Shown here piece after piece: positions 24,677-56,748 of a stretch of 64,000 nt of DNA (position 1 is its first letter; every line of letters begins with the position of its first letter). Source of the DNA: Candidatus Saccharimonadota bacterium (GTDB taxonomy: Bacteria; Patescibacteriota; Saccharimonadia; Saccharimonadales; Saccharimonadaceae); NCBI GenBank assembly GCA_017510705.1, contig JAFWMO010000010.1:8678-72677 (forward strand). Reading direction: 5' to 3'. A model generated the notes under the pieces. The model was not told the DNA's origin, did no database searches, and saw only the letters and a list, made by a program, of their open reading frames with translations. A program made the position numbers and the translations under genes.

Positions 24677-26560
24677 TTAAAAATCTCCATCTGCGACTCT
24701 TTGTTCTTCGGCTTTGTCGCTGTTATTATCGCCGCCCACATCATTATTTACTTGAGCTTCTGCTTGCTTTTCGTTGCCGCCTTTGTCTACTTCTTGGCCT
24801 TTGGCAATATCTTCAGCAGGATGATAGGCGTTATCGCCATTCGTTTGTTCACCACCCTGGACTTTACCACCAGGTAATTTTTCTGGGTTAACGGTGCCGC
24901 TTTGTTCGCTGCCAGCACCTGGCTTGGCGCCACCATCATCAATGTAGCCTTTGTTGCCGTCGTTGGCATTGTCATCTTCGGTCTGTGGACCAGCTTCTTC
25001 TACGTCGACTTGCCACTGACCTTGTTCGGCGTGCGTGTCACCTTCTTTGCCCCATCTAGAACCTTCAATGCCGGTGCCTTCTCCTTCTGAGCCGGTGCCG
25101 TCTTCTGAGCCTGTCCCTCCTCCACCTTCGTCTTCTGAGCCAGTGCCGTCTTCCGAACCTGTGCCATCGCCGCCTTCATAACCAGAACCTTCGGCGCCGG
25201 CAGAACCAGGGTCGGTCGGGTTGCCTGGGATCTTTGGCACACCTGGTGGGGTTTGATCATCATTTGGTTGATAACCACATTCCATGTTCAAATCGATCAT
25301 CTTTTTCTTCTTGTAGTAGTCGCCGTTTTTATCGCTATGGTCATAGAATGAACGATAGATGTCTACTTGAGGTGCCTCATTGCGCTCACGAGTGTCATAA
25401 CCAAGATGAACTTCCGTTGGATCCATCTTGCCATTTTCGTCTTCGTCTACGAAATAGAGGTAGTTGGTTTCTTCTGTATCATTTTCGTTATAAAAGACAA
25501 AGGATGTTTTATCGCTGTTCAAAATCTGTTCTAGTTTCTCAAGAAGTTTTTCGCGAAGTCCATTACCGTCTTCGTGGCTACCGATATAATCATCAATGTC
25601 CGTCATAGTAACGCCGAGCTTTGCGTCTTTTGGCGTAATATCCTTGATGCCAAATTCTTCTTTTTCTGCATCGGTAAAGAGGTAATATACATAAGAAGCA
25701 AGTATCTCTGGAGACTTTGTGGCTTGGGCCATTATATGTTCTGTGGCAGCCTCACGATCTTCAAAATCTTCTGAATAGTCATGGCCGTAGGCATTCCAAG
25801 CCTCTTTGCCTGTAACGCCCCAAGGATTACCGTCCTTATCGCGAACAACAATGTAGTCATCGCCCCAACGGCTTTTGGCTTCTTCTTCCCAATCGTCACC
25901 GTAATCTGCAATTTCAAAACGGTCAGCATATTCCTCGTAATCGTAGGTCACACCATTTGCTAGTTCGCCGGCATATGGGTTGATTTCCTCTTCTTCGACT
26001 TCCCCACCAGCTCCTCCAACAGTAGTGCCAACTGCATATGGATAGTTACTCGGATACCCAGCTCTAGAGCCTTTACTGGTGTTGCTGCCACCTAAGGTCA
26101 AGGCGAGTACTGCGGCAAGCGTGATCGCTACGCCAGCGATAATAACTGGCACCAACCATTTGCTTTTCCCTTTGTTATTATTCCATTTATTGATAGTGCT
26201 TTCAACTTCTTCCGCGGAAGGCTTATCGGCCTCCTCGGCTTCTTTGATATCGCCTTTAACAACAGCAATTTCCTGATAAAGCTTTTGCATTGCTTCGCGG
26301 ACGGCTTTGGCTTCTTCAGGATTTTGGTCCTTCATTTCTATATAGGCTTTTTCTAGTTCTGCAAATTTGGATTCCATATCCTCAATGGCTTTTTTGGCTT
26401 CCAAAGTTTCTTTACCACGCTCGCCATATTCTTCGTCTATAATTTCTTTGTTTTCAGCTGAGCTATTAGAAAGGTCTTCTGGTTGATCTTGTGGCTGTTG
26501 ATTTAGGCCAAGATCGTTAAATTCAGTGGAGCCAGTGGAACGAAAATTTTCACTATTCAT
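24677..26560 (-). CDS. very acidic single-pass membrane protein with GTGSED-type low-complexity repeats
   Basis: 627 aa with a TM helix WLVPVIIAGVAITLAAVLALTL and a D/E/G-rich C-terminal region (GTGSEDGTGSEDEGGGGTGSEDGTGSEGEGTG). Confidence 0.6.
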   Translation of the reverse strand: MNSENFRSTGSTEFNDLGLNQQPQDQPEDLSNSSAENKEIIDEEYGERGKETLEAKKAIEDMESKFAELEKAYIEMKDQNPEEAKAVREAMQKLYQEIAVVKGDIKEAEEADKPSAEEVESTINKWNNNKGKSKWLVPVIIAGVAITLAAVLALTLGGSNTSKGSRAGYPSNYPYAVGTTVGGAGGEVEEEEINPYAGELANGVTYDYEEYADRFEIADYGDDWEEEAKSRWGDDYIVVRDKDGNPWGVTGKEAWNAYGHDYSEDFEDREAATEHIMAQATKSPEILASYVYYLFTDAEKEEFGIKDITPKDAKLGVTMTDIDDYIGSHEDGNGLREKLLEKLEQILNSDKTSFVFYNENDTEETNYLYFVDEDENGKMDPTEVHLGYDTRERNEAPQVDIYRSFYDHSDKNGDYYKKKKMIDLNMECGYQPNDDQTPPGVPKIPGNPTDPGSAGAEGSGYEGGDGTGSEDGTGSEDEGGGGTGSEDGTGSEGEGTGIEGSRWGKEGDTHAEQGQWQVDVEEAGPQTEDDNANDGNKGYIDDGGAKPGAGSEQSGTVNPEKLPGGKVQGGEQTNGDNAYHPAEDIAKGQEVDKGGNEKQAEAQVNNDVGGDNNSDKAEEQRVADGDF

Positions 26561-27560: not shown

Positions 27561-27728
27561 GGGGTAGAATACAGTAAAATTTGTTTGCGGTTCGCTGCAC
27601 GCCACGAACAAAAAAAATAATTTCAGTCAGGTTCTCACCTATATTTCAGTATAGGATTCGAACCTGTGAAATTATTTTCTTGTTCTTGGGCTTGCTCAAT
27701 GCAAACAAATTTTGCTGTGTTCTACACC
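27561..27728. repeat. 168-nt palindromic (MITE-like) element with 28-bp terminal inverted repeats that overlaps the ileS stop codon
   Basis: The TIR GGGGTAGAATACAGTAAAATTTGTTTGC (27561..27588) matches the reverse complement of 27701..27728 at 25 of 28 positions. An internal 81-nt hairpin spans 27606..27686. Confidence 0.7.
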
Positions 27729-30610
27729 TTTTCTAACGAGATTGTGATGTTTTCGCCGTTTACTTTGGCGATTTCATCATAGGCATAATTGCCGTCTAGC
27801 TCTATATTGTCTGTGAGCACTTCGGCTTTGATAAAGTCTAGGTGCTCTGAAGGGGCTTCTACTGATAACGAGAGGCGGATTTTGTCGCCTGGGGCAAGGC
27901 CGGCCTTTTTGCGGGCGGATTGGATGGCGCGGACAAGCTCGCGGGCATACCCTTCCCTCTTTAAGTCTTCGGTGAGAGTTTTGTCTAATTTTAATTCTTT
28001 GCCGTTTGCTACTGATTTGACGTTTACTTCTTCGGCAATGATTTGCTCATAAAAATCATTTAGCTTTTCACCTGGATAAACGAGATTACTAAGTGGCTGG
28101 CGAATCTTGATCTGGTCTTCGGTGTCGGACCTCTGCATACGGAGCGCAAGAGCATCCGTAATGATATTCCTGGTGCGGGCCATCTCTTCGAGAATCTTCT
28201 CATCTATGTTGCCAGCCTCTGGCCAGTCTAGAAGGTGGACAGATTCTTCTTTGCCAGTCATTTTCTGATATAATTCTTCGGCTAAAAATGGTGTAAATGG
28301 CGCTAGGAGCTTGGCTAGATATATTGATATATAATATAGCGTGCTAAAGGCGGCCTTTTTGTCCTCTTTATTTTCGTTTTTACTGAAGCGGCGACGAGAA
28401 CGACGAACAAACCAGTTGCTCATGTCGTCAATGAACGGCAAAACGGTTTCGAGGGCTTTTGGAAGGTTGTATTCTTCCATACCTGCGGTAATATCGTTTC
28501 TTAATTGATATACACGAGACAGAATCCAGATGTCTAGAGGATTTTTCAAAAATGAAACATTTTCTGAAAAATCTTCGGTATTTAGATTTTCTACCTCAGC
28601 GTAGGTGGTGAAGAAGTCGTAGACGTTCCAGATCATGGAAAGTTTGCGGGAGATGTCCGAGACATCCTTATCTAGCATGGCGAAATCTTCGCCAGACATG
28701 ACTGGACTCATAAGTAGCAAAAATCTGTAGGCGTCGGCAGAGTATTGGTCCATTAGGATGTTTGGATCGGTGTAGTTGCCAAGGGATTTGCTCATTTTGC
28801 GGCCATCATTACCGGCAAGAGTACCAGTAGTAATCACGTTTTTGTAGGCATTTTTTGCGCCTTTCTTGGCCTTTTCGCCAAAAGCACCAATGGAGGCAAG
28901 GGCCGTATTTACAGCGTGAACATAATAGAACCACGCACGGACTTGACCGACGTATTCTACAATGAAATCGGCTGGGTAGTTTTTTTCAAACTTCTCTTTA
29001 TTCTCAAACGGATAGTGAAGCTGTGCGAATGGCATAGAGCCAGATTCAAACCAACAGTCTAAGACTTTTTCGATACGAGTGAAATGCTCGCCATCAATAT
29101 CGAATTCAATCTCGTCCACCCATGGGCGGTGGTAATCTTCTAGTTTTTTGCCGGATAGTTCGTATAATTCTTCGTAAGAACCAATGACTTTGATTGAGCC
29201 TTTGTCTCCCTTCCAAACAGGCATAGCAGTAGCCCAGAAACGATCACGAGAAAGGTTCCAATCTGGAGCAGCTTCGATATTTTTGGCGAAGCGGCCGTGT
29301 TTTAGATATTCTGGGAACCAGTTGATATTCTCATTTTCCTCAAGCATCATCTGTTTTTGGCCGTCTATATCAAAGAACCAAGATGGAAAAGCGCGGTACA
29401 TAATACGCTCTTTGGAACGTGGGTTAAATGGGTATTCGTGTTGGATATATTCAATCCTGAAGACGATGCCCTTCTCTTCTAGACATTTGGCGATAAACTT
29501 GTTGGCGGCCCAAATTTGAATACCATTTTCATCAGTGTCGCGGACACCGAGAGCGTGAAGTTTGTCGGCGTATTCTGGCAAGTAATAACCATTCTCATCT
29601 AGAGTATCAATGAAGCCAATTTCGGATTCGTGCTCGCGGTAGAGCCCATAATCATCTTCGCCATAAGCTGGGGCGATATGAACGATACCAGTGCCGTCTT
29701 CTTCACCGACGAAATCTGCGGTAAAGACTTTGCATTTGGTCCCGTCCAATGATTCGTATTCTAAACCAGCAAGCTCAGAGCCTTTGACTACTTTTTCTGG
29801 TTTCTCTGAACCAAAGATTTGTTCGGCGCGTTTTACTGCTACGACCAACCTTTCACCGTCTATATTATATACACCGTAATCTAAGTCTTTTGATACAGCA
29901 AGAGCGCGGTTGGCCATTAGAGTCCAAGGTGTAGTAGTCCAAGCTAAGAGATAAAAATCCGGGGTTTTGAATTTTACATAGGCGGATGGGTCGGTAACCA
30001 TCTGGTAGGCGTCGTTATCCATGGTGACTTCGGCTTTGGAAACAGGTGTCGCAAACTTGGTGTCATACATAAGAACCTTGCGGCCTTCGTAAATTTTTCC
30101 AGCTTCGTATAATTTTTTGAACGCCCACCAAACAGATTCCATAAAATCTTTGTTCATAGTGCGATAGCAATTGTCAAAATCCACCCAGCGACCAACACGA
30201 TCAATAGTACCGCGCCATGCTTCCGAATTAGCAACCATGGATTCGCGAGCCTTAATTATATAGTCTTCAAGAGACCACTTGGTGCCAATCTCACGGCGAT
30301 CGGTAATACCAAGCTGTTTTTCAACAAAATTCTCTGCTGGAAGGCCGTGGCAATCCCAACCCCAACGGCGTTCTACGCGGTAGCCATTCATAGTCCAAAA
30401 ACGCGGGACAGCATCTTTTACCACAGAGCTAAGAAGCGTGCCATGGTGTGGAAGGCCGGTGATAAATGGTGGGCCATCATAAAAAACATAGGATTTGTCT
30501 ATCGGGCGATTTTCAACCGATTTTTCAAAAGTTTTGTTTTTCTTCCACCACTCAATGAGCGATTTTTCGTATTCTATGGCCTTGCGGCGCTCTCCGGCTC
30601 TATATTTCAT
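27722..30610 (-). CDS. ileS: isoleucyl-tRNA synthetase, type 2 (eukaryote-like)
   Basis: YDGPPFITGLPHHGTLL HIGH region, KMSKS and 962 aa. TGGTATAAT lies 7 nt upstream of the ATG. Confidence 0.9.
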   Translation of the reverse strand: MKYRAGERRKAIEYEKSLIEWWKKNKTFEKSVENRPIDKSYVFYDGPPFITGLPHHGTLLSSVVKDAVPRFWTMNGYRVERRWGWDCHGLPAENFVEKQLGITDRREIGTKWSLEDYIIKARESMVANSEAWRGTIDRVGRWVDFDNCYRTMNKDFMESVWWAFKKLYEAGKIYEGRKVLMYDTKFATPVSKAEVTMDNDAYQMVTDPSAYVKFKTPDFYLLAWTTTPWTLMANRALAVSKDLDYGVYNIDGERLVVAVKRAEQIFGSEKPEKVVKGSELAGLEYESLDGTKCKVFTADFVGEEDGTGIVHIAPAYGEDDYGLYREHESEIGFIDTLDENGYYLPEYADKLHALGVRDTDENGIQIWAANKFIAKCLEEKGIVFRIEYIQHEYPFNPRSKERIMYRAFPSWFFDIDGQKQMMLEENENINWFPEYLKHGRFAKNIEAAPDWNLSRDRFWATAMPVWKGDKGSIKVIGSYEELYELSGKKLEDYHRPWVDEIEFDIDGEHFTRIEKVLDCWFESGSMPFAQLHYPFENKEKFEKNYPADFIVEYVGQVRAWFYYVHAVNTALASIGAFGEKAKKGAKNAYKNVITTGTLAGNDGRKMSKSLGNYTDPNILMDQYSADAYRFLLLMSPVMSGEDFAMLDKDVSDISRKLSMIWNVYDFFTTYAEVENLNTEDFSENVSFLKNPLDIWILSRVYQLRNDITAGMEEYNLPKALETVLPFIDDMSNWFVRRSRRRFSKNENKEDKKAAFSTLYYISIYLAKLLAPFTPFLAEELYQKMTGKEESVHLLDWPEAGNIDEKILEEMARTRNIITDALALRMQRSDTEDQIKIRQPLSNLVYPGEKLNDFYEQIIAEEVNVKSVANGKELKLDKTLTEDLKREGYARELVRAIQSARKKAGLAPGDKIRLSLSVEAPSEHLDFIKAEVLTDNIELDGNYAYDEIAKVNGENITISLEKV

Positions 30611-40240: not shown

Positions 40241-40681
40241 ATGAAAAAAATTCTTTATCGTAACCCTTATGACGCTGAAAATTTCGACATGAAAAGATAT
40301 TTGAAATCGCTAAACAAATACGCTAAGATTTCCGAAAAAGAAGCCGAGGAGGCATTGGCAGCGTTTGACCAATATGAAACTATGCATGTTTCCTGCTTGA
40401 TTGAAGCCGGTATCAAATTGATTGAAGAAAAGACCGACAAGAAAACTGCAAAGGCATATTTTATGGAGCACGAGGAATATTTTGATGAAGGCAAGTTCGA
40501 GAGGCTTCGTCGCATTACCGGCTATCTAGTAGGTACCTTGGACCGCTGGAATGACGCAAAGAAAGCTGAGGAAAAAGCACGTGTAAAGCACTCTGTGAAT
40601 TCTGCAATTGATGACGCTGCTCGTCTTGCGGCACTAGAAACCCAAGCTATGGAACACAACGTAGCCTACGCAACACGTTAG
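40241..40681 (+). CDS. small protein carrying a class III RNR (NrdD) C-terminal glycyl-radical motif
   Basis: The C-terminus RLRRITGYLVGTLDRWNDAKKAEEKARVKH aligns with my recollection of the E. coli NrdD C-terminus, RRVCGYLGSPDARPFNAGKQEEVKRRVKH. GAGGA SD. Confidence 0.6.
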   Translation: MKKILYRNPYDAENFDMKRYLKSLNKYAKISEKEAEEALAAFDQYETMHVSCLIEAGIKLIEEKTDKKTAKAYFMEHEEYFDEGKFERLRRITGYLVGTLDRWNDAKKAEEKARVKHSVNSAIDDAARLAALETQAMEHNVAYATR

Positions 40682-41655
40682 TTCTCTATCAATTTACAGA
40701 CAAGAGCCGTAAGAAGGCTCTTTTCTGTTGGGTTGGACTCGGCAATTAGGAGCGCAAGGGCGGTAAGAGCGCGGTCGCTGATTTTGGTTTCGCCATTTTC
40801 GGTGAGATGATAGTCGTTGACTGTGAGAAAGACCACAAAAAGTAGAGCGCCGATACGTTTGTTGCCGTCGTAAAACGGGTGATCTTTAATAATGAGATAG
40901 AGGAGATTGGCAGCTTTTTCGGCGATAGATGGATAGACATCTTTGCCATCAAAAGTCTGCGAGATTGCACCAAGACTAGAAGAAAAAGCATCACCACGTG
41001 GTTTGCCAAAAAGCTCGTCGCCTTTTACATTTTTCTTGAGAGACGTAATGATGCTACTGCAGTCAGATTCGGTAAGAAGTTTGATGGAACGCTTCTTGCC
41101 TTTAACGAAGGAGATGTGCCCCTCGTCAAATTCTTGCAAGGCCTTAAAACTTGGGGAGTATTTGGTAATAACTTCTAGGATGCCGCCAGCTTCGTCTGCA
41201 GAAAGATCAGAAGCGGCAACAAGGCGTTTGACAATGCCAAGCGCACCTTCAATTTCGTGAAGCTTCTTTGAATCAAGTTCTTTCAGGCGGCGATCATTGA
41301 TAGCTACGCCATCCACTACGTAATGATGCAAAACTTTGGTGGCCCAGATACGAAAGTCGGTGGCTTTTTTGGAATTAACGCGGTAACCAACAGAGATGAT
41401 GGCGTCGAGATTATACATTTTGACCCGATAAGTCTTTCCGTCTGTGGCAGTATGTGCAAAAAATGCACATACTGAACTTTCGTCCAGCTCACCATCACGA
41501 AAAATGTTACGAATGTGGCGCCCAATTACCGTACGGTCTACACCAAAAAGCGCAGATAGTTGCTCTTGCGTCGCCCAGATAGTTTCTTCATCTATGTCAA
41601 CTTTGAATATAACTTCGCCCTCATGGGCTTTATAGATTTCAACAGCTTTTTCCAT
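40678..41655 (-). CDS. RhuM-family N-terminal domain fused to a Fic/Doc domain
   Basis: The N-terminus IWATQEQLSALFGVDRTVIGRHIRNIF is RhuM-like. The C-terminus HPFYDGNKRIG is a Fic/Doc motif. The start is likely ATG 41655 (GAAAGGG SD). Confidence 0.7.
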   Translation of the reverse strand: MEKAVEIYKAHEGEVIFKVDIDEETIWATQEQLSALFGVDRTVIGRHIRNIFRDGELDESSVCAFFAHTATDGKTYRVKMYNLDAIISVGYRVNSKKATDFRIWATKVLHHYVVDGVAINDRRLKELDSKKLHEIEGALGIVKRLVAASDLSADEAGGILEVITKYSPSFKALQEFDEGHISFVKGKKRSIKLLTESDCSSIITSLKKNVKGDELFGKPRGDAFSSSLGAISQTFDGKDVYPSIAEKAANLLYLIIKDHPFYDGNKRIGALLFVVFLTVNDYHLTENGETKISDRALTALALLIAESNPTEKSLLTALVCKLIEN

Positions 41656-41727
41656 TTTTACCCTTTCAGTATGTGCAGCATACACATACTAATAATAACA
41701 CGGCTTATCCTATTTTGGAACAAGCTG

Positions 41728-44124
41728 TTATAGTTCGCCCCAATTTTGGCCTTGAGATATTTCTACAACCAATTTGACGTTTAGCTCTGGAGCGACGGGC
41801 TCCATTTTGTTTTTAAGAATCTTGGTAACTTCGTCTGCGATATTTTCATCACATTCTACGATAAGAGAGTCGTGAACTTGCATGATTAGCTCGGCTCCAT
41901 CTGGGAGAGCTTTGTCTACGGCGATCATTGCGCGCTTCATAAGATCCGCCTCGGTGCCCTGAATTGGCATATTGGCGGCGGCACGTTCCGCAGCTTGGCG
42001 AATAAGGAAGTTTGGCGAACTTACATCTGGGGTAGGACGGCGGCGACCGTAAAAAGTCTCCACATAGCCTTCGTTTTTGGCCTGAGCCAAAATATCTTCT
42101 AGCTTTTTCTTGATAGGGGCGCGGAGCTTGAAATAATCTTCTATAAAGGTCTTGGCTTCCGCCATAGACATACCGGTAGCGTCCGAAAGTCCTTTCATAC
42201 TCATACCATAGAGTACGCCAAAATTAATAGTCTTGGCGGCGCGACGCTGGTTTTTGGTGACTTCGGTAAGTGGGACATGAAAAGCTTCGGAGGCGGTTTT
42301 GGTGTGAATATCTATATCGTTGTTGAAATCGTCAATTAGGGCTTGATCACTAGATAGGACAGCTGCGAGACGGAGTTCAAACTGCGAATAATCAGCAGAG
42401 ACCAAAACTTTGCCACGAGGAGCAATAAAACCAGTACGAATACGCTTCCCCTCTTCTGTGCGCACTGGGATATTTTGGAGATTTGGGCTAACCGAACTAA
42501 GGCGGCCAGTGGCGGTGACATTTTGCGTAAAGGTGGTATGGACACGACCATTCTTGTCTGCCAAGTCTGACATCGGCATAATGTAGGTGGAAAGAAGTTT
42601 TGCGGCCTCGCGGTATTCGATAAGCTTTGGAATAATTGGATGTACATCTTTTAGTTTTTCAAGCTCTTTGGCGCCAGTAGAGTAACCACGCGTGGTTTTT
42701 TTGATGCCTTTAGTAGGGAGAGCTAAATCTGTAAATAACACTTCGGAAAGTTGTGCTGGGGAGTTGACGTTAAATTCTTTGCCAGCAAGTGCGCAGACTT
42801 CTGTTTCTAATTTTTTGACGATACTTTCATATTCTTTTTCTAGTGACTTGAAATAAGCGCGATCTATGAGCATTCCCTTTTCTTCCATTTTGTAGAGGAC
42901 TGGAATAAGTGGAAGGTCAAAATTTAAAAGTACATCTAGGAGTTTTGGTGTACGTTCTAAAATCGTGAGTTGCTCATGGTAGGCAAAGGCGAAATCTTCT
43001 GGAGCTTCGTCGCTCCTAGAAAGAGGGTTGATGAGGAAAGCGGCTTGAGAGAGGTCCCAAAAGGGCACGCCGGACAAAATCTTTTTGGCAACTGTCTCGT
43101 CTGAATGCATCAAACTCTTGATGTCCCAATCGATGATGGCTGGCGGGGCCTGGCGCTCACCCGCTATCTCGGACTGCGTCGCCTTGCCAGGCTCCGGAGG
43201 CCCGTCGATGGCGGGCTGAGTGCCACCCGCCACACCCTCTTCGCCGCCCGGCACAGATATCTTGCGGATGAGGGAGTTGAATTCAAGTTTTTTGAGGCCG
43301 GAGATGGTACGGTCTCGATCAAAAACAAAATCTGGGATTTTGGCAAGGTCTACAGGGGCGTCAAACATAATCTTTGCGAGTTCGCGAGACATGTAGGCGG
43401 AATTTTTTCCTGCTTCAAGTTTGGTCCGGACTGAACCAGAAATTTGTTCAATGTGTTCGTAAATGCCATCTAGGGTGCCAAAATCATTTAATAATTTGGC
43501 GGCGGTTTTTTCGCCAATGCCTGGAACCCCTGGAATGTTATCGGAAGAATCACCCTTCAAGGCTTTGAGGTCTAAGAACTGAGATTTTTTGATACCATAT
43601 TTTTCTTCTAGCTCTGGGACATTTATTTGTTCAATATTGGTAAAACCTTTTAAGATGCGCCACATGTGAGTGTTGCTATCTACGATCTGAAGCATATCAA
43701 GATCGGAAGAAATGATGAAAGTCTCGTACTCGCAAAATCCGTCTGGGCCTACAGTCTCATCAGCCTCACGACTAAGCGTGCCAATGATGTCATCTGCTTC
43801 GTAATTGTCAATTTCTACGAAAGCCCAACCAAGGTTTTTGATTAGCTCTTTTAGTAGTGGAATTTGAGCATAAAAATCATCTCCAGGTTTTACTCTGCCG
43901 GCTTTGTAATCTGCATAAATTGCACGACGACGCGAGACGGAAGTTTTGGAATCCCAAGCTACTACAACTTTGGTAGGATTTAATTTTTTGACGATTTCCA
44001 TGGCAATGGCCGCAAAACCATAAATGCCACCAGTAGGCGTGCCATCTGGCAAACTAAGTGCCCCCATAGCATAATAACCTCTATAGAAAACAGATTTGCC
44101 GTCGATAAGAACTAAACGCTTCAT
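41728..44124 (-). CDS. polA: DNA polymerase I
   Basis: 5' nuclease domain (LIDGKSVFYRGYYA), polymerase motifs A, B and C (DYSQFELR, RRAAKTINFGVLYG, QVHDSL). Confidence 0.9.
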   Translation of the reverse strand: MKRLVLIDGKSVFYRGYYAMGALSLPDGTPTGGIYGFAAIAMEIVKKLNPTKVVVAWDSKTSVSRRRAIYADYKAGRVKPGDDFYAQIPLLKELIKNLGWAFVEIDNYEADDIIGTLSREADETVGPDGFCEYETFIISSDLDMLQIVDSNTHMWRILKGFTNIEQINVPELEEKYGIKKSQFLDLKALKGDSSDNIPGVPGIGEKTAAKLLNDFGTLDGIYEHIEQISGSVRTKLEAGKNSAYMSRELAKIMFDAPVDLAKIPDFVFDRDRTISGLKKLEFNSLIRKISVPGGEEGVAGGTQPAIDGPPEPGKATQSEIAGERQAPPAIIDWDIKSLMHSDETVAKKILSGVPFWDLSQAAFLINPLSRSDEAPEDFAFAYHEQLTILERTPKLLDVLLNFDLPLIPVLYKMEEKGMLIDRAYFKSLEKEYESIVKKLETEVCALAGKEFNVNSPAQLSEVLFTDLALPTKGIKKTTRGYSTGAKELEKLKDVHPIIPKLIEYREAAKLLSTYIMPMSDLADKNGRVHTTFTQNVTATGRLSSVSPNLQNIPVRTEEGKRIRTGFIAPRGKVLVSADYSQFELRLAAVLSSDQALIDDFNNDIDIHTKTASEAFHVPLTEVTKNQRRAAKTINFGVLYGMSMKGLSDATGMSMAEAKTFIEDYFKLRAPIKKKLEDILAQAKNEGYVETFYGRRRPTPDVSSPNFLIRQAAERAAANMPIQGTEADLMKRAMIAVDKALPDGAELIMQVHDSLIVECDENIADEVTKILKNKMEPVAPELNVKLVVEISQGQNWGEL
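43140..43252. repeat. GC-rich palindromic element inserted in frame in polA (family member A)
   Basis: There is an abrupt GC-rich block inside AT-richer coding sequence. Its arms are GGCGCTCACCCGC and GCGGGCTGAGTGCC. It shares an identical 25-mer, TCGCCTTGCCAGGCTCCGGAGGCCC, with 51540..51564. Confidence 0.7.
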
Positions 44125-44565
44125 TTAATACCCCAATAATTCACGGCCAGGTTTGCGTGAAATTAATTTTTTGATAACTGCTAGAACTTTGGGCTTTTCT
44201 CTGCAAGCACCGAGCTCACACAGATCGGTAGTGTCGTTTCCGTTGTATTCAAGGCTACTTGTAGAAATACCGTCATATTCCATTAGAGTGCGGTTGATGC
44301 CGTCGTCATCAAAACTTTCGTCTTCTACGATTATTTTGTTGTCGTAGACATAGTAGATAGTTTTTACTTTGCTGTTTTCGGAATAGCGATCTGTAACTGA
44401 GAACTTATAGCCCTCTGGTACAGCGGCCGCGCCATCACCGTTCATTATACTAAGAACATTAATGATGAGTATAGCAACACAAGCTGCCCCAAGCACCCAA
44501 AGAGTATAACGCAAGAGATTGCCCTTTTTGTAGGCTACTGATGTAAGCTCGGCCGCGCCACTCAA
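44125..44565 (-). CDS. membrane-anchored hypothetical protein
   Basis: 146 aa with one TM helix; abuts polA and overlaps the upstream kinase gene by 4 nt. Confidence 0.55.
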   Translation of the reverse strand: MSGAAELTSVAYKKGNLLRYTLWVLGAACVAILIINVLSIMNGDGAAAVPEGYKFSVTDRYSENSKVKTIYYVYDNKIIVEDESFDDDGINRTLMEYDGISTSSLEYNGNDTTDLCELGACREKPKVLAVIKKLISRKPGRELLGY

Positions 44566-45128: not shown

Positions 45129-45144
45129 AGTATAATTGTAGCAC

Positions 45145-45957: not shown

Positions 45958-45996
45958 AAGATCAAAAGAAGTGCTATAATAGAAACATATTCGGGG

Positions 45997-46037
45997 ATTT
46001 CCCGCACCCTAGTCGTTAGGCTAGGGGAAATTTTTTT
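45997..46037 (+). terminator. intrinsic terminator between convergent genes
   Basis: CCCTAG/CTAGGG stem extended by TTTC/GAAA, followed by T7. Confidence 0.7.
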
Positions 46038-46045
46038 GTAGAGTT

Positions 46046-46459
46046 TTAAAAATATAGTCTTCGGAAACCTTTTTTGACTTTTTGCATGTCATCTTCGGCG
46101 ATTTGCCCTAAACGACTATAAAGTCTAGCTGTACTAAAAGTTCTTGCCTGCGATAGGACTGCGCAAATATCTTTCTCTTGAAATCTAAAACCCACGTACC
46201 AAGCCCCGTCATGTTTTTGCGTTGACAATGGAATGCCTAAGAAACCAAGATGTGTTAGTTTTTTATAAATCAACACTGGTCGTGAAAAATATTTACTTTT
46301 GCCGTTTATTTCTACGCCAACATTTTCGCCTACTGCTACCCACCAAATTTCGCCATCAGTAATCTTTGGTATTTTATTCGTGCTAATATTATGCTTGCGC
46401 TCTTTTACCGGAAACCACATTTCCAAATTTTTATGTTTGTCTTCAAACTCTTTGTCCAT
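46046..46459 (-). CDS. PemK/MazF-like toxin family protein, no adjacent antitoxin ORF
   Basis: GEIWWVAVGENVGVEINGKSKYFSRPVLIYKK and LSQARTFSTARL resemble the MazF/PemK fold pattern. Confidence 0.5.
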   Translation of the reverse strand: MDKEFEDKHKNLEMWFPVKERKHNISTNKIPKITDGEIWWVAVGENVGVEINGKSKYFSRPVLIYKKLTHLGFLGIPLSTQKHDGAWYVGFRFQEKDICAVLSQARTFSTARLYSRLGQIAEDDMQKVKKGFRRLYF

Positions 46460-48306: not shown

Positions 48307-49107
48307 TTAAATAGTCAAGAGATATTCAATCTTGGCGTTGCGACGAGCGTCGTCGTCTGCTTTTGGCAAATCTTCCCTACTGGAATAATCTTCAAAGATT
48401 GGAAGGACGTTTTTGATCTCACCGTCATAAATTGGTGGCTTGTCGTAAACGCTCCAGAGGATAATGCGGAGACTTGGTGCGTTTTTGGCATAAAATTCTA
48501 GAGCTTTGGAAGTGGCACGGATAAACTCCTGCTCGGTTTCTCTAGAATGGCGCCAAGCGCGGCCAGAAAGATATTTTTCGGTGACTACTGGAGAAATCGC
48601 AATCATCAAAATTGTTGCTTCGTAATTCCCTGCTATGAGTAGCTCTAGCAAGATGCCTTCCATTTCTGGATCTAGAAGCGTAACATCTAGGACAATGTCA
48701 TATCCACCTTTGATGAGCTCGGACAAAGTAAGAAATAGCATGATGGTGCTAAACTCGTCTGTCATTTTGCGAAGGTTTTCGTCGCCGTAGTAATCTTTGA
48801 TTTCTTGGTAGTGCGGGTGATATTCCACAAAGCGACGTGCAGCCATTAGAATCGGCTCAAAATTATTTTTTTCACAGTAGGCTTCTACGGCTGGGAGAAT
48901 TTGAGTAGTCTTGCCAGAGCCAGAGAGCCCTGCGATACGGATAAAACGGTGGTTTTTGGTGGCGGCAATCGTAAAATCTTCTACCACCTTTTTGAGAATG
49001 GCTGGATATTCGGCAAGCCCAACTTGCCACTCTGGCTTGACCTCGCTTGGCCAGTGAGCTCGCATATATTCTATAACTTTGACTAACCGTGGATCACTTT
49101 GAGACAT
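48307..49107 (-). CDS. zeta-toxin-like P-loop kinase family protein
   Basis: IAGLSGSGKTT Walker A; size and pattern resemble the zeta toxin / AAA kinase fold. This is weak. Confidence 0.4.
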   Translation of the reverse strand: MSQSDPRLVKVIEYMRAHWPSEVKPEWQVGLAEYPAILKKVVEDFTIAATKNHRFIRIAGLSGSGKTTQILPAVEAYCEKNNFEPILMAARRFVEYHPHYQEIKDYYGDENLRKMTDEFSTIMLFLTLSELIKGGYDIVLDVTLLDPEMEGILLELLIAGNYEATILMIAISPVVTEKYLSGRAWRHSRETEQEFIRATSKALEFYAKNAPSLRIILWSVYDKPPIYDGEIKNVLPIFEDYSSREDLPKADDDARRNAKIEYLLTI

Positions 49108-50060
49108 TTGTCACCTTTTTTAATTTCAATAGTTTTGATATTTTTAAACACTCTGTACTCACCTTCGGCCTGGAGCTCTACTGTGGCGGGCTTTAAAAAT
49201 TCTAACTTGTCGCCAGTGGTTTCTTCTCCTGGCGTACGGACAAAAATCGCTTTTACCATTAGTACGAATAGTCTTGGAAAACTGGTGAGTTTGCGATTCA
49301 TACTGCGAAAAATTTTTGGTTTCAAATAATCATCTCCACCTTTCATCACACGACACATGGACTTGCCGGAAAGCGCGCAATAATCGCTGGCCTTTTTTTC
49401 TGCAGGCTTGCCATTAATGGTAAATGGTGGGATAAAAACTTTTTTGTGGCGGTTTTTGAAATACCATTTTGAAAGAGCAAGATAAGAGCGCCAGGAAGAT
49501 TTGGAACCTTTTTGCATTTTTTTTCTGAATTTTGGCTCATCAAAAATCTCACAGACTTCGGCGGTCATGCCGATGGTCATGTAGCAGGACGCATAGCGGA
49601 AAAACTTGCCATCCACATAAATCTCGAGAGGATATAACCTCTGGACGGGGCCTGCCACACATTTTCCCCCAAATCCGCAGGTCCCAGGGTCCCCCTTATG
49701 TGTGTCACCCGTCCATGTTTCTATTATCTTGAAAAGTTTATCTGTACTCATCGTTCCGAGAGTGCGGGCGAGGTCGTTGAAATTGCCGTATGGGAGGACA
49801 GCAAGTGTGGCGTCTTTGCCAGATTTCAAAATACCATTGGATGCGATAATGCCAGTAGCATCACCGCCGGCAGAAAGCACCAAATCACCATCTTTTAGGA
49901 GCTTGGCAAACTTGGCGGCGTTTTTGTCTACGTCGGTAGGCTCAACTTCGTATTTGCCAATGATAAAACCCTTTAATTCCCTGGCTTTTGACAGAACTTC
50001 TTTTTCTACATCAACAAAACGAGACGAGCGGGGATTGTAAACAATGAGAAGACGGCGCAT
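49083..50060 (-). CDS. diacylglycerol/lipid kinase family protein (DAGK_cat, YegS-like)
   Basis: LLIVYNPRSS start, and the motifs LSAGGDATG and LPYGNFNDLARTLG. Confidence 0.65.
   Translation of the reverse strand: MRRLLIVYNPRSSRFVDVEKEVLSKARELKGFIIGKYEVEPTDVDKNAAKFAKLLKDGDLVLSAGGDATGIIASNGILKSGKDATLAVLPYGNFNDLARTLGTMSTDKLFKIIETWTGDTHKGDPGTCGFGGKCVAGPVQRLYPLEIYVDGKFFRYASCYMTIGMTAEVCEIFDEPKFRKKMQKGSKSSWRSYLALSKWYFKNRHKKVFIPPFTINGKPAEKKASDYCALSGKSMCRVMKGGDDYLKPKIFRSMNRKLTSFPRLFVLMVKAIFVRTPGEETTGDKLEFLKPATVELQAEGEYRVFKNIKTIEIKKGDKCLKVIHG
49643..49714. repeat. GC-rich palindromic element inserted in frame in the lipid kinase gene (family member D)
   Basis: Arms GGACGGGGCCTGCCACACAT and ATGTGTGTCACCCGTCC. 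72 nt equals 24 codons. The terminal motif GACGGGGCCTGCC resembles GGCGGGGCCTGGC of the polA element. Confidence 0.6.
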
Positions 50061-50457: not shown

Positions 50458-51432
50458 TTACCTTAGATATTCGTGTAGTTTTTTGGTGTCTTTGTTTTTG
50501 CGAAGTTTAGAAAGGGCTTTGGCTTCAATCTGACGGATACGCTCACGAGTAACATCAAATTCGTTGCCAACTTCTTCTAGAGTGTGCGGACGACCACCGC
50601 CGATGCCAAAGCGAAGGCGGATGATTTTTTGTTCCCTTTCGGTGAGAGTGGCAATAATTTCGGACAATTGTTCCTTCAAAATTTGGTTTGCGGCGGAATC
50701 TTCTGGGGAGTCGCGCTCCTCGTCTTCTACGAAATCACCAAGCACGGAATCCTCGTCGTCGCCCTCGCGACCAACAGAAGCATCTAACGAGGCGATATCT
50801 TGTTTGATGCGCATCACATAATCCACCTTTTCTGGCTCCATGTCGAGTTCCTTGGCGATTTCTTCGTTGGTAGGCTCACGGTTTAATTCTGAGGTGAGTT
50901 TGCGAGTAGTACGAAGGACTTTGTTGATGGTTTCTACCATATGCACTGGAATACGAATGGTGCGGGCTTGATCTGCAATAGCACGAGTAATAGCTTGGCG
51001 AACCCACCAAGTAGCATAAGTAGAAAACTTAAAACCTTTGGCTGGATCAAATTTTTCTACGGCGCGGAGGAGACCGGTGTTTCCCTCTTGGATAAGATCA
51101 AGAAAATCTAGACCGCGGCCACCATAACGCTTGGCGATAGAAACCACAAGACGCATGTTTGACTCTACCATTTTGTCTTTGGCTTTTTTGTCACCCTTTA
51201 CGATACGCTGAGCGAGATCGGCTTCTTCTTCTGGGGTAAGAAGTGGGATTTTGCCAATTTCGCGAAGGTATAATCTAACTGAATCATCTGCAAAAGCATC
51301 AACGTTTTCGGCGGTGATGGCAAGCTCTTCGTCCGAAAGCTCTTCTTCGCTTTCAAGGTCGTCTGTGCCAGGTTCGTCAAAATCAAAATTCAAGTCTTTT
51401 GCATTCAAAATATCATCATCTTTCAAGCTCAT
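50458..51432 (-). CDS. rpoD: RNA polymerase sigma-70 factor
   Basis: Regions 1.2 to 4.2 are present ([49 protein letters not shown]). The start is set at ATG 51432, directly behind the promoter. Confidence 0.9.
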
Positions 51433-51470: not shown

Positions 51471-51587
51471 AGCGGACTAACGCGCCCGTCTTGGGCTGCG
51501 TCGCCTCGGCCCGTCGCCACGGGCGAGGCGCGCTCATCCTCGCCTTGCCAGGCTCCGGAGGCCCTGCGACGGGGCGTTAGCTCCGCT
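51471..51587. repeat. GC-rich palindromic element (family member B) between dnaG and rpoD; provides the dnaG stop codon
   Basis: 20-nt terminal inverted repeats AGCGGACTAACGCGCCCGTC and GACGGGGCGTTAGCTCCGCT. Internal hairpin CGCCTCGGCCCGT/ACGGGCGAGGCG. The 25-mer is shared with the polA element. Confidence 0.75.
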
Positions 51588-53211
51588 GTAAATCATAGAT
51601 TTTTTTCATGATTTCTTCGTATTCTTCACTTTCTTCATCAAGTTTAGAAAGTTGCTCGTTTAAGGCGGAGATTTGTTGTTTTTTGGATTCCCTATCATAT
51701 AGAGCTAGGAGGTCGGAGGCTTCCTTTTCGTAATCTGTGTCTTTGATATTTTCGTGATCGCGATTGAATACCAATTCTAGCTCATCCAATTTAGCATCAT
51801 CTTCTGGCGGCTCAAAAGGAATTTTAGTTTTGGTGACACCGCCAAAAATCTTGAGGGCCAAGAGACTGTCTTCGTATTTTTTGAGTTTATCGGATTTTAA
51901 TTCGGTTTTTGGCTTTTTGAGATAACGGTGTGAGACGGCCTGTTCTAGTTTTTTGTTCAGCCTCTCACCTTTTTCGCGCAAAATTTCTACTTCTACATCT
52001 AGTTTTTTAGCGACTTTTTTCTCGTAACTAGCGCGTTCTATTTCGTCGTTTACGAAGCTGAGGAGCTTTAAAGCAACGTCGGAATATTGTTTTTTGCCGG
52101 TAGCAGTGCGAAGATCTAGATTTTCTTCGTATTTGTTTAAAAGCCAATCCACCGCCGGCACGCGCTCTTCTACGGCCTGTTTCCAGAGATTTGGATCTTT
52201 CTGGATGAGCTCGTCTGGATCTTTGGCGCCATGGTAATTGGAAATTACAGAAAGATTAATACCGAGGTCGCCAGCAAGCATAATGGCGCGTTCGGTGGCT
52301 TTGACTCCAGCTTCGTCTCCATCATAGGCAAGACGAATATCACTAGTAAGATTGGACAAAATTTTGAGGTGTTGATCTGTCATGGCGGTACCAGAAGTAG
52401 CTACGGCCTCTCTGACGCCAGCTTGGTGAGACGATATAACATCCATATTGCCTTCTACAATCACGACAAAACCATTTCTGCGAATGGACTCCTTGGCGTT
52501 GCAAAGGCCAAAAATAAAACGAGATTTGTTGAATAAAATCGTATCGGAAGTGTTGAGATATTTTGGCTCACCCTTGCCAATAATACGCGCGGTAAAGCCG
52601 ATAATATCGCCACCAGTATCAACAAACGGAACCGTCATGCGATCACGAAACATATCGTTGTCGTAGGCACTTAAAAGGCCGGCGGTTTTTAATTCTTCTT
52701 TTGTAAAGCCGCGTTTTTTTAAGGCTTCGTAGAGCATCTTTCCCTGCCCGGGGGCATAGCCAATTTTGAATTCAGAAACAGCCCAGCGATTGAGATTGCG
52801 TTTATAAAAAACGTATTCACAAACAGTTTTATTACGGACAAGACAAGCTTGATAATATTTGGTAGCGAGGGCTAAAGCTTCCTTGGCACGAGCTTTTTTC
52901 TTGGCAACATTAGGATCGCCACCGCGATATTTGGTAATATCTACACCGGCACGAGCGGCAAGTTTTTCTAAAGCCTCTTTAAAACTAATCCCTTCTACTT
53001 CCATAAGGAAGGTAAAAATATCACCGCCTTTGCCGGCGGAAAAATCATGCCAAATGCCCTTTTCGGGAGAAACCATGAAACTTGGGGTTTTGTCTACACC
53101 CCAAGGAGAACGGCCTTTGAGATTTCGGCCTGCACGTTTTAGCTCCACATACTGCCCCACTACATCTTCCACCGCCAGTCTGGATTTGATTTCCTCCTTC
53201 AGATCGTACAT
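51577..53211 (-). CDS. dnaG: DNA primase
   Basis: DKTPSFMVSPEKGIWHDFSAGKGGDIFTF zinc-binding-domain homolog without Cys/His ligands; TOPRIM domain (IVEGNMDVIS, YDGDEAG). Confidence 0.85.
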   Translation of the reverse strand: MYDLKEEIKSRLAVEDVVGQYVELKRAGRNLKGRSPWGVDKTPSFMVSPEKGIWHDFSAGKGGDIFTFLMEVEGISFKEALEKLAARAGVDITKYRGGDPNVAKKKARAKEALALATKYYQACLVRNKTVCEYVFYKRNLNRWAVSEFKIGYAPGQGKMLYEALKKRGFTKEELKTAGLLSAYDNDMFRDRMTVPFVDTGGDIIGFTARIIGKGEPKYLNTSDTILFNKSRFIFGLCNAKESIRRNGFVVIVEGNMDVISSHQAGVREAVATSGTAMTDQHLKILSNLTSDIRLAYDGDEAGVKATERAIMLAGDLGINLSVISNYHGAKDPDELIQKDPNLWKQAVEERVPAVDWLLNKYEENLDLRTATGKKQYSDVALKLLSFVNDEIERASYEKKVAKKLDVEVEILREKGERLNKKLEQAVSHRYLKKPKTELKSDKLKKYEDSLLALKIFGGVTKTKIPFEPPEDDAKLDELELVFNRDHENIKDTDYEKEASDLLALYDRESKKQQISALNEQLSKLDEESEEYEEIMKKIYDLQRS

Positions 53212-54572: not shown

Positions 54573-55072
54573 TTGAGCTCCTCTATGCTGCCATTAATAT
54601 CATCAAGTGCGCGGTGTGCGTCGCGCTTAGTAAACTTTTTGTCCAGGGCGTTTTCAAAATAAATCTTCCAGGCAGAAACATCAAGCATACGATAATGCAG
54701 GCGCTTGTTTAATTCTGGCATTTCGCGTTCAATAAACTTGCGATCCTGGTGAATAGAATTGCCGGCAAGATAAATTTCTTTACCAAAATACTTGTCTAAG
54801 AATTCTAATAGTTCCCTTTCTACTTCCGCGGCCGGCTTACCATTTTTGTTTTGTGCAACAAGGGCGTCGTAGGACTCTTTGTTTCTTTCCCAAAACTCGC
54901 CGACCATGCGCTCTTTTATTAGCTTGTCGTCTACTTTTACTACGGCTTCGTAGGTAGCAATTTCATTTAAGTCCATGTCTGTAGCGATAGCCGCGACTTC
55001 TAGAATCTTGTCTTTTACTGGTTCAAGGCCAGTCATTTCTAAATCAATCCAAAGTAGTTTTGCTTTTTTCAT
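54548..55072 (-). CDS. orn: oligoribonuclease
   Basis: LLWIDLEMTGLEPVKDKILEVAAIATD DEDDh exonuclease motif I; HRALDDI motif III. Confidence 0.85.
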   Translation of the reverse strand: MKKAKLLWIDLEMTGLEPVKDKILEVAAIATDMDLNEIATYEAVVKVDDKLIKERMVGEFWERNKESYDALVAQNKNGKPAAEVERELLEFLDKYFGKEIYLAGNSIHQDRKFIEREMPELNKRLHYRMLDVSAWKIYFENALDKKFTKRDAHRALDDINGSIEELKWYLTFLK

Positions 55073-56748
55073 TACATTTCCTCCGGGATTTCAATTCCCA
55101 AAATATTTAGTCCGTGAGTCATAACGTTCAAATATTTTTCTACAATCTTGGCGCGTTCGGCTTCTTCTGGGGCACCAGCGACTGGGCAATTTTCGTAAAA
55201 TCTAGAAAATTCTTGGGCGAGTTCGTAGAGGAAATTCGCAACTTTGTGTGGGGCCATCTCATTTACAGCTTCGGACAATACATCTTTATACCCCAAAAGC
55301 TTCTTCATTAAATTTCTTTCAAATGGCGTCAGAACATTCGCACGCGAACCGCTTCGCTCACGCCCATCGTTATGGGGTTCGCTTGCTAGAAGCTCCCCGT
55401 TGGTCGCTATGTTCGCTTTGCGAATGTTCTCGACGCCTGCGAGGATCTTTTTGGCGCGGACACAGGAGTAGAGGAGGTAAGGGCCGGAGTTGCCGGTCAT
55501 TTTGACCGATTCTTTTGGATCAAAGATGATGTTGCCGCCCATTTTATATTTCAAAAATGCGTACTTAGTGGCAGCGAGAGAGACTTTTTTGTCCTCGGAA
55601 TTATATTCGTTTTTTAACTCGTCTTTTACCATATTTAATACATCTACGGCTTTCAAGAAATTGCCTTTTCTGGAAGACATTTTGACATTGCCTGGGAGTT
55701 TGACGAGGCCGTGAGTTAGGTGAGTGGTCTTTTTTACAAGTTCTGGCGCATATTGTTCTATGGATTTCAAGACTACCTTCATGTATTCGAGCTGTTCGTT
55801 GCCAGTGATGACGACGGATTTATCAAAATGATAATCTTCCCACTTGGTGAAGATAAGACCAACATCCTTTGCCTCGTAAGTTGGGACACCTTCTTTGTTG
55901 ATAAACACGCGGGTATGGAGGCCGAATTTGTCACCATTGAAAATAACAGCGCCATCGCTCATTTCGTAAACGCCTTTTTCTAATTGTTCTTTTACTGTCT
56001 GGAGGCCAAGAGCGGCTACGGTAGATTCTGGGTAATACTTATCAAACTTGATACCAATGGTGGCGTAGAAATTTTTGAAATAATCGTAGGATAGTTCCCT
56101 GCCTTTCCAATAAAGGTCTGAGAGCTCGGTGCCATGGATGTCTTCGGCGTTTATCTTGTAAATCTCTTTGTTCAAATCGGTGATTTCGGCTTTGGCCTTA
56201 TCATCATCTTCGTAAGCGGTGGTGCCCTCAATATAACACTTGGCAATATCTTCGATAGTTAGGTCTTTGATGTCTTTTTGTTTTAAGATATACATGGTTT
56301 TGGCGACGTGAAGACCAACATCACCGCCGAAATTGGCACGAATTACGTTGGCGCCGGCGTACTCGTAAAGACGGCTGATGGAGTCACCCATAATGGAAGT
56401 GTAGAGATGCCCGACGTGCAGAACTTTGAATGGGTTTGGATCGCTAAATTCACAAATGATAGTCTTGCCCTCAAGGTCGCCGCAGGATAAATCTAGGGTA
56501 TCTATTGAATTCTTTAATGCATCGTCCGCAATGGTAAAGTTAATAAAACCTGGTGCAGTTGGAGTGCCGATATTCAATTCTTCGGCGATTTGCATCGGGG
56601 CTTTGTGAAGCACGCTAGCGAGCTTTAGAGGGGCGTTTGAGGAATAATCCGCGTCGATATTTGCCGGAGCAGCGGTAATTTCGGGATCAAAATCAAGGTT
56701 GTATAAATTTTTGATAGCATCTTTTAATTGGTTCTCTATCTCTTGCAT
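55072..56748 (-). CDS. argS: arginyl-tRNA synthetase
   Basis: The HVGH (HIGH) motif, MSSRKG (a KMSKS-like motif) and a DALR-type C-terminus. TGGTATAAT lies 6 nt upstream of the ATG. Confidence 0.9.
   Translation of the reverse strand: MQEIENQLKDAIKNLYNLDFDPEITAAPANIDADYSSNAPLKLASVLHKAPMQIAEELNIGTPTAPGFINFTIADDALKNSIDTLDLSCGDLEGKTIICEFSDPNPFKVLHVGHLYTSIMGDSISRLYEYAGANVIRANFGGDVGLHVAKTMYILKQKDIKDLTIEDIAKCYIEGTTAYEDDDKAKAEITDLNKEIYKINAEDIHGTELSDLYWKGRELSYDYFKNFYATIGIKFDKYYPESTVAALGLQTVKEQLEKGVYEMSDGAVIFNGDKFGLHTRVFINKEGVPTYEAKDVGLIFTKWEDYHFDKSVVITGNEQLEYMKVVLKSIEQYAPELVKKTTHLTHGLVKLPGNVKMSSRKGNFLKAVDVLNMVKDELKNEYNSEDKKVSLAATKYAFLKYKMGGNIIFDPKESVKMTGNSGPYLLYSCVRAKKILAGVENIRKANIATNGELLASEPHNDGRERSGSRANVLTPFERNLMKKLLGYKDVLSEAVNEMAPHKVANFLYELAQEFSRFYENCPVAGAPEEAERAKIVEKYLNVMTHGLNILGIEIPEEM
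55328..55434. repeat. palindromic GC-rich element inserted in frame in argS (member C)
   Basis: Terminal inverted repeats GTCAGAACATTCGCA and TGCGAATGTTCTCGAC. Internal pairs GCGAACC/GGTTCGC and CCCAT/ATGGG. It encodes ENIRKANIATNGELLASEPHNDGRERSGSRANVL. Confidence 0.65.

Follow-up and report, generated by a model that had tools for sequence, protein, structure and literature searches.

A family of GC-rich palindromic repeats lying in frame in DNA polymerase I and other housekeeping genes of animal-gut Saccharibacteria

The DNA studied here is a stretch of 64,000 nucleotides from a Candidatus Saccharimonadota genome (contig JAFWMO010000010.1), in the following called the window. Its polA gene, which encodes DNA polymerase I (Pol I), contains a GC-rich palindromic block. 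This block is probably a copy of a non-autonomous, DNA-level palindromic repeat which either entered the flexible linker between the Pol I domains or was kept there, and which is translated within the protein.

The polA gene (41728..44124, minus strand) was identified from the list of open reading frames (ORFs) and by Pfam, and its product of 798 aa shows the N- and C-terminal 5'-3' exonuclease domains (PF02739, PF01367) and the polymerase domain DNA_pol_A (PF00476). It is 100% identical to a protein from Candidatus Saccharibacteria (P0001). The window has a GC content of 42.9%, while positions 43150-43249 reach 73% and the flagged block 73-77%, and the ORF reads through this region. Only one other GC island in the 64 kb, at 51471-51587, ranks as high. 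The peptide quoted for the block in the first-pass annotation is in frame and corresponds to PolA residues 291-329, and the proposed location in the linker is confirmed by the position between the sequences FNSLIRK, the end of the 5'-nuclease region, and IIDWDIK. Of the coordinates given there (43140-43252) the greater part stands: the palindromic element, here named element A, comprises 43142..43231 on the plus strand, antisense to polA (90 nt, 30 codons, PolA residues 298-328), and has 75.6% GC versus 44.1% in the remaining polA. The tail at 43232..43252 (minus strand, encoding VPGGEEG) is GC-rich and non-palindromic; it belongs to the GC island 43119-43279 and lies beyond element A, outside both the hairpin and the match of the covariance model described below.

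The inverted arms noticed in the block pair with each other in a hairpin with a minimum free energy of -68.5 kcal/mol (z = -3.8), which folds on either strand and whose stability was reached by 0 of 200 shuffled sequences. The 25-mer which had been said to recur at 51471-51587 (element B) is exact. It is TCGCCTTGCCAGGCTCCGGAGGCCC and has exactly two occurrences, at 43179 and 51540, for a chance expectation of 0.00. The likeness of elements A and B extends over 33 nt at 91%, and a second motif, GGNCTGCGTCGCCT, is also shared. A terminal motif in common with a third element, C, at 49643-49714, proved to be real as well and reads GG(A)CGGGGCCTG...CACCCG(T)CC. Two independent assemblies of one species carry A, B and C in identical form, so that these elements are not assembly artefacts.

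The element family is dispersed and restricted to Saccharibacteria from animal guts. A 22-nt, four-fold degenerate core was searched in one genome per species (185,579 species genomes, 596 Gb), where by our own estimate about one match is expected by chance. We found 36 matches at 35 loci in 20 genomes, with one to four per genome, and all of these genomes are Saccharibacteria/Nanosyncoccus metagenome-assembled genomes from ruminants or other animal guts. A covariance model built from 32 copies added 18 further copies, including diverged ones, in about 331 kb of fetched loci, and the window has four family members. This corresponds to roughly one member per 15-20 kb, a rough extrapolation from loci that had been chosen for containing a copy. 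Four model matches lie within 8 kb of locus L034 and three in L035, and a methyltransferase-like ORF (L012:5688-7112; L034:2230-3579) carries family copies in one reading frame, two of them in L012.

One fold is common to all 38 unique copies, with energies between -55 and -92 kcal/mol. It consists of an outer stem of about 25-30 bp, whose sequence is copy-specific and almost perfectly paired within each copy, a conserved junction (CTCGGGCTGCGT), a covarying inner stem-loop of 12-13 bp with the conserved loop TCGCCA (or TCGTTA), and an invariant arm of 36 nt (GCGCTCATCCTCGCCTTGCCAGGCTCCGGAGGCCC) which contains a small hairpin. The canonical unit is thus a Y-shaped hairpin of 129 nt or 43 codons, and copies with the termini GGCGGGKCCTG...CACCCGCC have exactly this length in seven out of seven canonical cases. 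These termini are common to three subfamilies of 129, 70-97 and 180 nt; element B and the copies in TrmD and LepA end otherwise. The lengths of the canonical unit (129 nt), of element A (90 nt) and of the long subfamily (180 nt, 60 codons) are all multiples of three. Of the six frames in which the core can be read, five are open, and one frame has a TGA. Members of the 180-nt subfamily, at L020:4528-4707 and in the TrmD gene of L031 (~3443-4267), have the same termini and another interior, and are in frame with the peptide ...EPVFSxAGLEFSSTS...RNIRVENSN....

The pairing is supported by covariation. Double compensatory changes occur in 17 of 32 consensus pairs, 97.4% of the cells are paired compared with 82.6% in shuffled alignments (0 of 500 reach the observed value), and covariation scores 0.399, where shuffles give 0.129 and slid partners 0.06-0.10.

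Measured against the canonical unit, element A, with the termini GGCGGGGCCTG...CACCCGCC, is a canonical element minus 39 nt (13 codons), the in-frame deletion having removed the inner stem-loop. The covariance model matches it with 36.4 bits (E = 3.9e-9), leaving 36 model positions, the whole inner stem-loop, deleted. A TCGCCT direct repeat is present at the deletion junction, and in our reading the deletion may have arisen between two such repeats.

Most copies lie within genes. In 25 of the 38 unique copies the element is read through in frame in an identifiable housekeeping gene, where it is either flanked by Pfam domains, as in a linker, or interrupts a single domain, which Pfam then matches as two pieces. 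The hosts are 14 distinct genes, namely those for LepA, PriA, PheT, Obg (at two sites), YchF, BipA, TsaD, TrmD, a DAGK-like protein, TruB, MnmA, Der, ArgS and PolA. In all 25 cases the host frame is kept and no stop codon occurs, and intergenic copies may have stops in their arms, as element B does. Three reading frames of the element, one of which is used in PolA, cover nearly all coding cases. Translation through the element is strongly implied at the sequence level, because the frame is kept, stops are absent, and lengths come in whole codons: 43 for the unit, 60 for the long subfamily and 13 for what element A has lost. A profile of the commonest element-encoded peptide was also run against a database of 5.8 billion proteins and gave one match from 3,383 candidates; the query is short and compositionally biased and hence unsuited to a census of host proteins.

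The stretch which separates FNSLIRK from (I/L)I.W.IK in 28 PolA orthologues, the linker, varies in length from about 0 to 90 aa. The shortest-linker PolA orthologue (L002) has 22 aa encoded at 32% GC, a state which, judging from its sequence, is plausibly close to the uninvaded one. In three other loci (L001, L003, L004) the linker DNA forms a long hairpin matched by the covariance model, antisense to polA and of the TCGTTA loop type, which encodes a recurring EP(R/H)NDG(R/P)E motif; the same subtype is also found in an intergenic position at L001:14205-14335. The linker of P0014 has the canonical core in a different frame, and those of P0054 and P0102 have the termini of the short subfamily (WTGD). 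In L001, whose PolA is a 71%-identical orthologue, the linker (L001:10911-11100) comprises two adjacent elements, a decayed remnant with a canonical core (GGACCTCCGGAGCCCG, peptide IEGPPEPDK) and an element with a TCGTTA loop, an arrangement which suggests successive insertions at one site. Because the linkers of orthologues hold family members of different frames and subtypes, the PolA linker is a hot spot which was repeatedly occupied or remodelled. The first-pass annotation had proposed to compare orthologues in this way, to count copies and contexts in other genomes and to map the insert on a structure; a homologous peptide present in all relatives without nucleotide palindromy, together with a 25-mer lacking further copies, which would have spoken against an inserted repeat, is not what was found.

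The Pol I linker joins the 5'-nuclease to the Klenow-like part of the enzyme in a flexible manner and is sensitive to proteases, and therefore an additional disordered stretch should be tolerated there. In an AlphaFold2 model of the window PolA, residues 282-324 form an unstructured coil between two folded parts. The predicted local distance difference test score (pLDDT) of this coil is 30-40. For the other host proteins, compatibility of the insert with the fold was judged from split Pfam matches only.

The sites are polymorphic between species and can be empty, filled, occupied by another subfamily or filled in inverted orientation. At the TrmD site the locus L023 is empty, five species have a canonical element and L031 has the 180-nt subfamily; the BipA site is empty in L032. 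In LepA and Der one codon position is occupied by the element in either orientation, depending on the species. The flanks in Der are about 80% identical, and when the elements are brought into the same orientation they are 88% identical, including an asymmetric arm bulge. Because this likeness is retained down to the bulge, inversion of the whole element in place is indicated at Der.

Element B allows an occupied site to be compared with an empty one. This full-length member (51471..51587, plus strand) is matched by the model with 119 bits (E = 1.6e-35) and folds with -76.4/-80.3 kcal/mol (z = -4.4/-5.7). It is located in the spacer between dnaG and the sigma-70 gene, which measures 144 nt in the window and only 15 nt in the syntenic loci L001, L003 and L004 and in the gene map of the P0002 genome. 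The relatives end dnaG with GAC TTGCAAAAT...TAG, while the window has GAT TTACAG[element]TTGCAAAAT...TAG. From this comparison it follows that the last three codons of dnaG and its TAA stop now come from element B. The C-terminus of DnaG (gene at 51577..53211, minus strand) has accordingly been remodelled to ...IYDLQRS*, compared with ...LQN(P/F)..* in the relatives. Downstream of element B lies the rpoD-like sigma-70 gene (50458..51432, minus strand), the true start of which is MSLKDD, giving 324 aa as in the orthologues. The genes dnaG and rpoD classically share one operon, and the very stable hairpin between them may affect the expression of rpoD.

The two remaining members in the window are in frame in other genes. 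Element C (49643..49714, plus strand; termini GGACGGGGCCTGCCAC...GTCACCCGTCC) belongs to the short subfamily, with family termini and a different interior, and encodes WTGDTHKGDPGTCGFGGKCVAGPVQ within a DAGK-like gene (49083..50060, minus strand). The product of this gene has 325 aa in the window against 302 aa in L003 and L004, which are without the insert of about 23 aa, and at the same site L028 and L040 carry an element with the canonical core instead (129 nt in L040, longer in L028). Element D (55321..55444, plus strand), which the first-pass annotation did not contain, is a diverged member of the TCGTTA loop type (24.4 bits, E = 2.6e-5), in frame in the arginyl-tRNA synthetase gene argS (55072..56748, minus strand), where it encodes ...LASEPHNDGRERSGS.... 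The argS orthologues include a canonical copy in L010 and a model match in L001. All four elements of the window have the plus orientation, and the plus strand of the window is mildly G-rich throughout.

The way in which the stems vary looks like a structural constraint on DNA rather than on RNA, because changes in the stem are almost all double, wobble pairs are not enriched and the orientation towards host genes is equal. In the stems we counted 162 double cells versus two single ones. Among the few mismatches, G.T accounts for 14 on one strand and for 15 on the other, a further 24 are of non-wobble type, and relative to the mRNA strand of the host the wobble mismatches are distributed four against eleven, without a bias for the mRNA strand. 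The core is found in sense and antisense orientation to the host genes in a ratio of 12:13, and copies within one locus are co-oriented. When elements are masked and each locus is turned so that its element points the same way, 30 of 37 loci show a positive GC skew in the flanks (p = 2e-4), and after removal of the coding-strand bias the intercept of the regression is +0.087 (t = 3.5). Counted by orthology groups the skew is positive in 13 of 16 (p = 0.02), and the three exceptions include LepA and Der, for which flips are documented. An origin of replication near parAB in the window, which we considered separately, is not supported by the skew profile.

Our favoured explanation has several parts. 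Because compensation is of the Watson-Crick kind only, a wobble signature is missing and the orientation follows the GC skew and not the direction of genes, the elements would spread or swap between sites by a strand-specific mechanism whose substrate at the replication fork would be folded DNA, either single-stranded or cruciform. A putative trans-acting protein would probably recognise the invariant arm and the conserved loop. The arms, nearly perfect and fast diverging, may be maintained in one or both of two ways, the copying of one arm from the other (quasipalindrome template switching) and copy turnover. The encoded peptide, rich in Pro, Gly, Ala, Arg, Ser and Glu, would be a tolerated disordered spacer, a passenger without a function of its own. 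That the element is selfish is something we infer, as mobility is seen only in the form of presence or absence and of inversion.

Several observations weigh against this explanation. Neither the window nor about 400 kb of related loci showed a transposase or another candidate for a mobilising gene; the Pfam matches of the window ORFs are to housekeeping genes and a Xer-like recombinase only and include no transposase. In the window and these loci no related autonomous insertion sequence with the same ends was seen, nor was a RAYT-like, Y1/HUH or TnpA gene seen in the annotated regions near copies. The only pair of termini no more than 6 kb apart, a candidate of 987 nt in L031, turned out to be an ordinary methyltransferase gene between unrelated motifs. 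The core has no matches in viral contigs, phage genomes and plasmids, and blastn against plasmids and phages also gave none. Target-site duplications do not flank any of the 12 copies with defined termini, where the flanks continue the palindrome; element B has at most an imperfect TTACAG/TTGCAA pair. The palindrome extends past the conserved termini with copy-specific sequence which is absent from empty sites. In the comparisons of filled and empty sites in TrmD, BipA and DAGK the insertion boundaries are not fixable, because the arms run into fast-evolving host loops and the flanking codons are variable. Furthermore, confidence in the PolA model as a whole is low (mean pLDDT 61.9), the basis for translation is the conservation of frame, and the association with GC skew comes from 8-kb fragments of draft genomes whose replication origins are not located. 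Finally, at orthologous sites the core is 84-100% identical, compared with 59-85% for the flanking DNA of essential genes and 26-72% for the arms. A core more conserved than its flanks is not predicted by a purely decaying selfish insert, and it leaves room either for a function at the level of the host or for continual conversion from active copies. Part of this conservation reflects how copies were found, since an intact 22-mer was a condition of the scan; decayed copies exist and are detected by the model.

One alternative is at the level of the host. According to it the host keeps the element for a function of the DNA, as a protein-binding site or as a signal for chromosome organisation, recombination or DNA uptake, and its occurrence within genes would be incidental. 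Across about 20 species the core and the inner loop hardly vary, and at orthologous sites they are better conserved than the flanking DNA of essential genes. Pairing is maintained in arms which have diverged by 30-70%, and a correlation of orientation with GC skew is likewise seen for some strand-specific motifs of hosts. The maintenance of the arms can, however, be explained by template switching without selection, a process established from quasipalindrome mutagenesis in E. coli, and the conservation is inflated by the design of the search. Some relatives moreover have empty sites with no sign of harm, other copies are decayed (for example polA in L001 and L003 and argS in the window), and element A has lost a third of the element. 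We therefore regard a host function as unlikely.

Strong covariation and stable folds on both strands are also what one would look for in a structured RNA that acts at the level of the transcript, whether by regulating in cis or in the form of a small RNA, and the place of element B between dnaG and rpoD is one where RNA processing or attenuation is plausible. Rfam 15, however, gives no match at gathering scores in the window and nothing relevant for two copies even at E <= 10, most copies are inside coding sequence, and G.U pairs are nearly absent. Selection at the RNA level is rejected by the tests of wobble pairs and of the orientation of the asymmetric core described above, and we consider this explanation quite improbable.

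Through the long outer stem the flanks come to lie side by side, as they do in some intervening sequences which are excised, so that the element might be taken out, as introns and inteins are, before synthesis or maturation of the protein, leaving Pol I unaltered. If the RNA were spliced, constraints on frame and length would be unnecessary, which disfavours splicing given that all 25 genic copies are in frame and free of stops, that the unit has 43 codons and that A lost 13; a stop codon is indeed held by the intergenic element B. With 30-43 codons the element is also far too small for an intein, and no intron family is matched. We give this possibility hardly any credence. That the block is an ordinary, fast-evolving low-complexity linker, alike to 51471-51587 by chance or local gene conversion, fits with the hypervariable length and sequence of the PolA linker among orthologues and is nevertheless refuted by the exact 25-mer with its zero chance expectation, by the same core in 14 genes and 20 genomes, and by orthologue linkers which are hairpins caught by the same covariance model.

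The interpretation as a DNA-level repeat invites comparison with known systems. The first-pass annotation had likened the block to Rickettsia palindromic elements (RPEs), repeats which form hairpins and measure about 150 bp, with nearly half of the copies lying in frame within unrelated genes (Ogata et al. 2000, 2002, as summarised in PMC10969869). As an analogy this is supported. Both are dispersed hairpin repeats of about 100-150 bp in the reduced genomes of host-dependent bacteria, in both a large share of copies is in frame in unrelated housekeeping genes with a recurring peptide and with several subfamilies, and insertion where the protein fold allows it, as proposed for RPEs, may apply here too. 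The Saccharibacteria family has a unit in this size range, all copies of which form a hairpin (z of -3.8 to -5.7 for A and B), and has 25 out of 38 copies in frame in 14 intact, unrelated genes. The resemblance is one of behaviour only, as composition, host phylum and architecture differ: the present family belongs to the Patescibacteria (candidate phyla radiation, CPR) and RPEs to Alphaproteobacteria, and it has about 75% GC in a genome of 43%. It is also set apart by its invariant asymmetric core, copy-specific Watson-Crick arms, exact 129-nt unit, inversion in place and orientation bias with GC skew. To our knowledge, these features have not been reported for RPEs. No sequence likeness to RPEs was detected, Rfam having no family for them. 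Because the core occurs only in Saccharibacteria among the 185,579 species genomes, homology to RPEs is very unlikely.

[quoted passage not shown] ERIC and QMITE1 have occasional intragenic copies which extend ORFs (PMC10969869, PMC5896051), and about 90% of MITEs are intergenic (PMC11602168). Our elements share with them the small, non-coding stem-loop nature and the subfamilies with common termini and differing interiors. ERIC, with about 127 bp and variants with internal insertions, is of similar size. MITEs are, however, typically AT-rich, with target-site duplications and termini matching a parent insertion sequence, whereas the present elements are GC-rich and mostly intragenic, many copies are without shared termini, and neither a parent insertion sequence nor a duplication was found, the latter in the 12 copies with defined termini.

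Repetitive extragenic palindromic (REP) sequences are palindromes of 20-40 nt with GTAG/CGTC heads (PMC3733652). With these, with the REPIN-RAYT systems and with palindrome-associated elements derived from IS200/IS605, which HUH transposases mobilise as single strands, our family may share the dependence on DNA hairpins, the absence of target-site duplications, a replication-linked orientation bias, and stems which vary while the loop or foot is conserved. Ton-Hoang and colleagues are said to have described in 2010 that single-strand transposition of the IS200/IS605 type is coupled to replication. In contrast to REP sequences the present elements measure 129 nt and are mostly intragenic, they have neither the short extragenic form with a GTAG/CGTC head nor an accompanying RAYT gene, and no Y1/HUH gene was seen near any copy. 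Assignment to an Rfam family or to the inteins and introns likewise fails. The GC clusters of yeast mitochondrial DNA and the double-hairpin elements of fungal mitochondria are GC-rich palindromic mobile elements in AT-rich compact genomes, some of them tolerated in frame in protein genes (e.g. in var1). Both are alike to our family in these points and differ in being organellar, about 30-60 nt long and unrelated in sequence.

A prior description of the family in Saccharibacteria or the CPR was not found in the full-text literature, the coverage of which is incomplete, including a MITE survey of 183,232 genomes and the main comparative paper on Saccharibacteria. We thus found no prior description, which is absence of evidence only.

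Other features of the window can be listed briefly. As to Pol I itself, no Pfam domain for a 3'-5' exonuclease lies between the 5'-nuclease and the polymerase parts (798 aa; orthologues 769-855 aa). In the neighbourhood of polA (40678-49107) there are genes of toxin-antitoxin type, a Fic/RhuM-like (40678..41685), a PemK-like (46046..46459) and a zeta-toxin-like one (48307..49107). At 27557-27732 there is an AT-rich, near-perfect hairpin of 176 nt with outer arms of 32 nt (-81 kcal/mol, z = -12), which is not of this family and extends into the gene for a class I tRNA synthetase (27722..30610, minus strand) at its 3' end; possibly it represents another family of palindromic elements. A hairpin of 71 nt at 48029-48099, with arms of 28 nt that are 86% complementary, lies in the spacer between an ORF of 518 aa and the zeta-toxin-like gene and could be a terminator or another small palindrome. 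Two tandem repeats of 48 nt (79% identical) at 25077-25172 encode a stretch rich in Pro, Ser and Glu in an ORF of 627 aa (24677..26560, minus strand) without a Pfam match, and the ORF at 5345-6199 has a NUDIX domain fused to an RNase H/RVT_3-like domain.

It is conceivable, although we put this forward as a tentative idea that is more likely wrong than right, that the family represents a new kind of bacterial mobile element and not just selfish inserts in decay: a Y-shaped hairpin which spreads or swaps between sites via single-stranded DNA at the fork, with a putative protein reading the 36-nt arm and the loop, with arms self-corrected through template switching and a core that flips in place, and pre-adapted to coding sequence by its 43 codons and five of six open frames. 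If true, such an element could colonise the essential genes of an ultra-small genome with almost no intergenic space. A stronger version would be that the host now depends on the element sites or exploits them.

We know of essentially one textbook example of colonisation by in-frame palindromic repeats at this scale, that of Rickettsia. The Saccharibacteria case, in which genes of replication, translation and tRNA modification are the hosts, shows that in-frame colonisation is a recurrent outcome in reduced, host-dependent genomes. It explains variation in length and low-complexity inserts in CPR proteins and affects annotation, phylogenomic alignments and structure prediction. The sites of the elements are natural markers of permissive insertion positions in essential enzymes. 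In addition, the family offers a defined DNA motif and structure with which to seek the mobilising machinery in a phylum whose mobile elements are poorly known, and the compensation restricted to Watson-Crick pairs together with the link to GC skew makes the question of movement directly testable.

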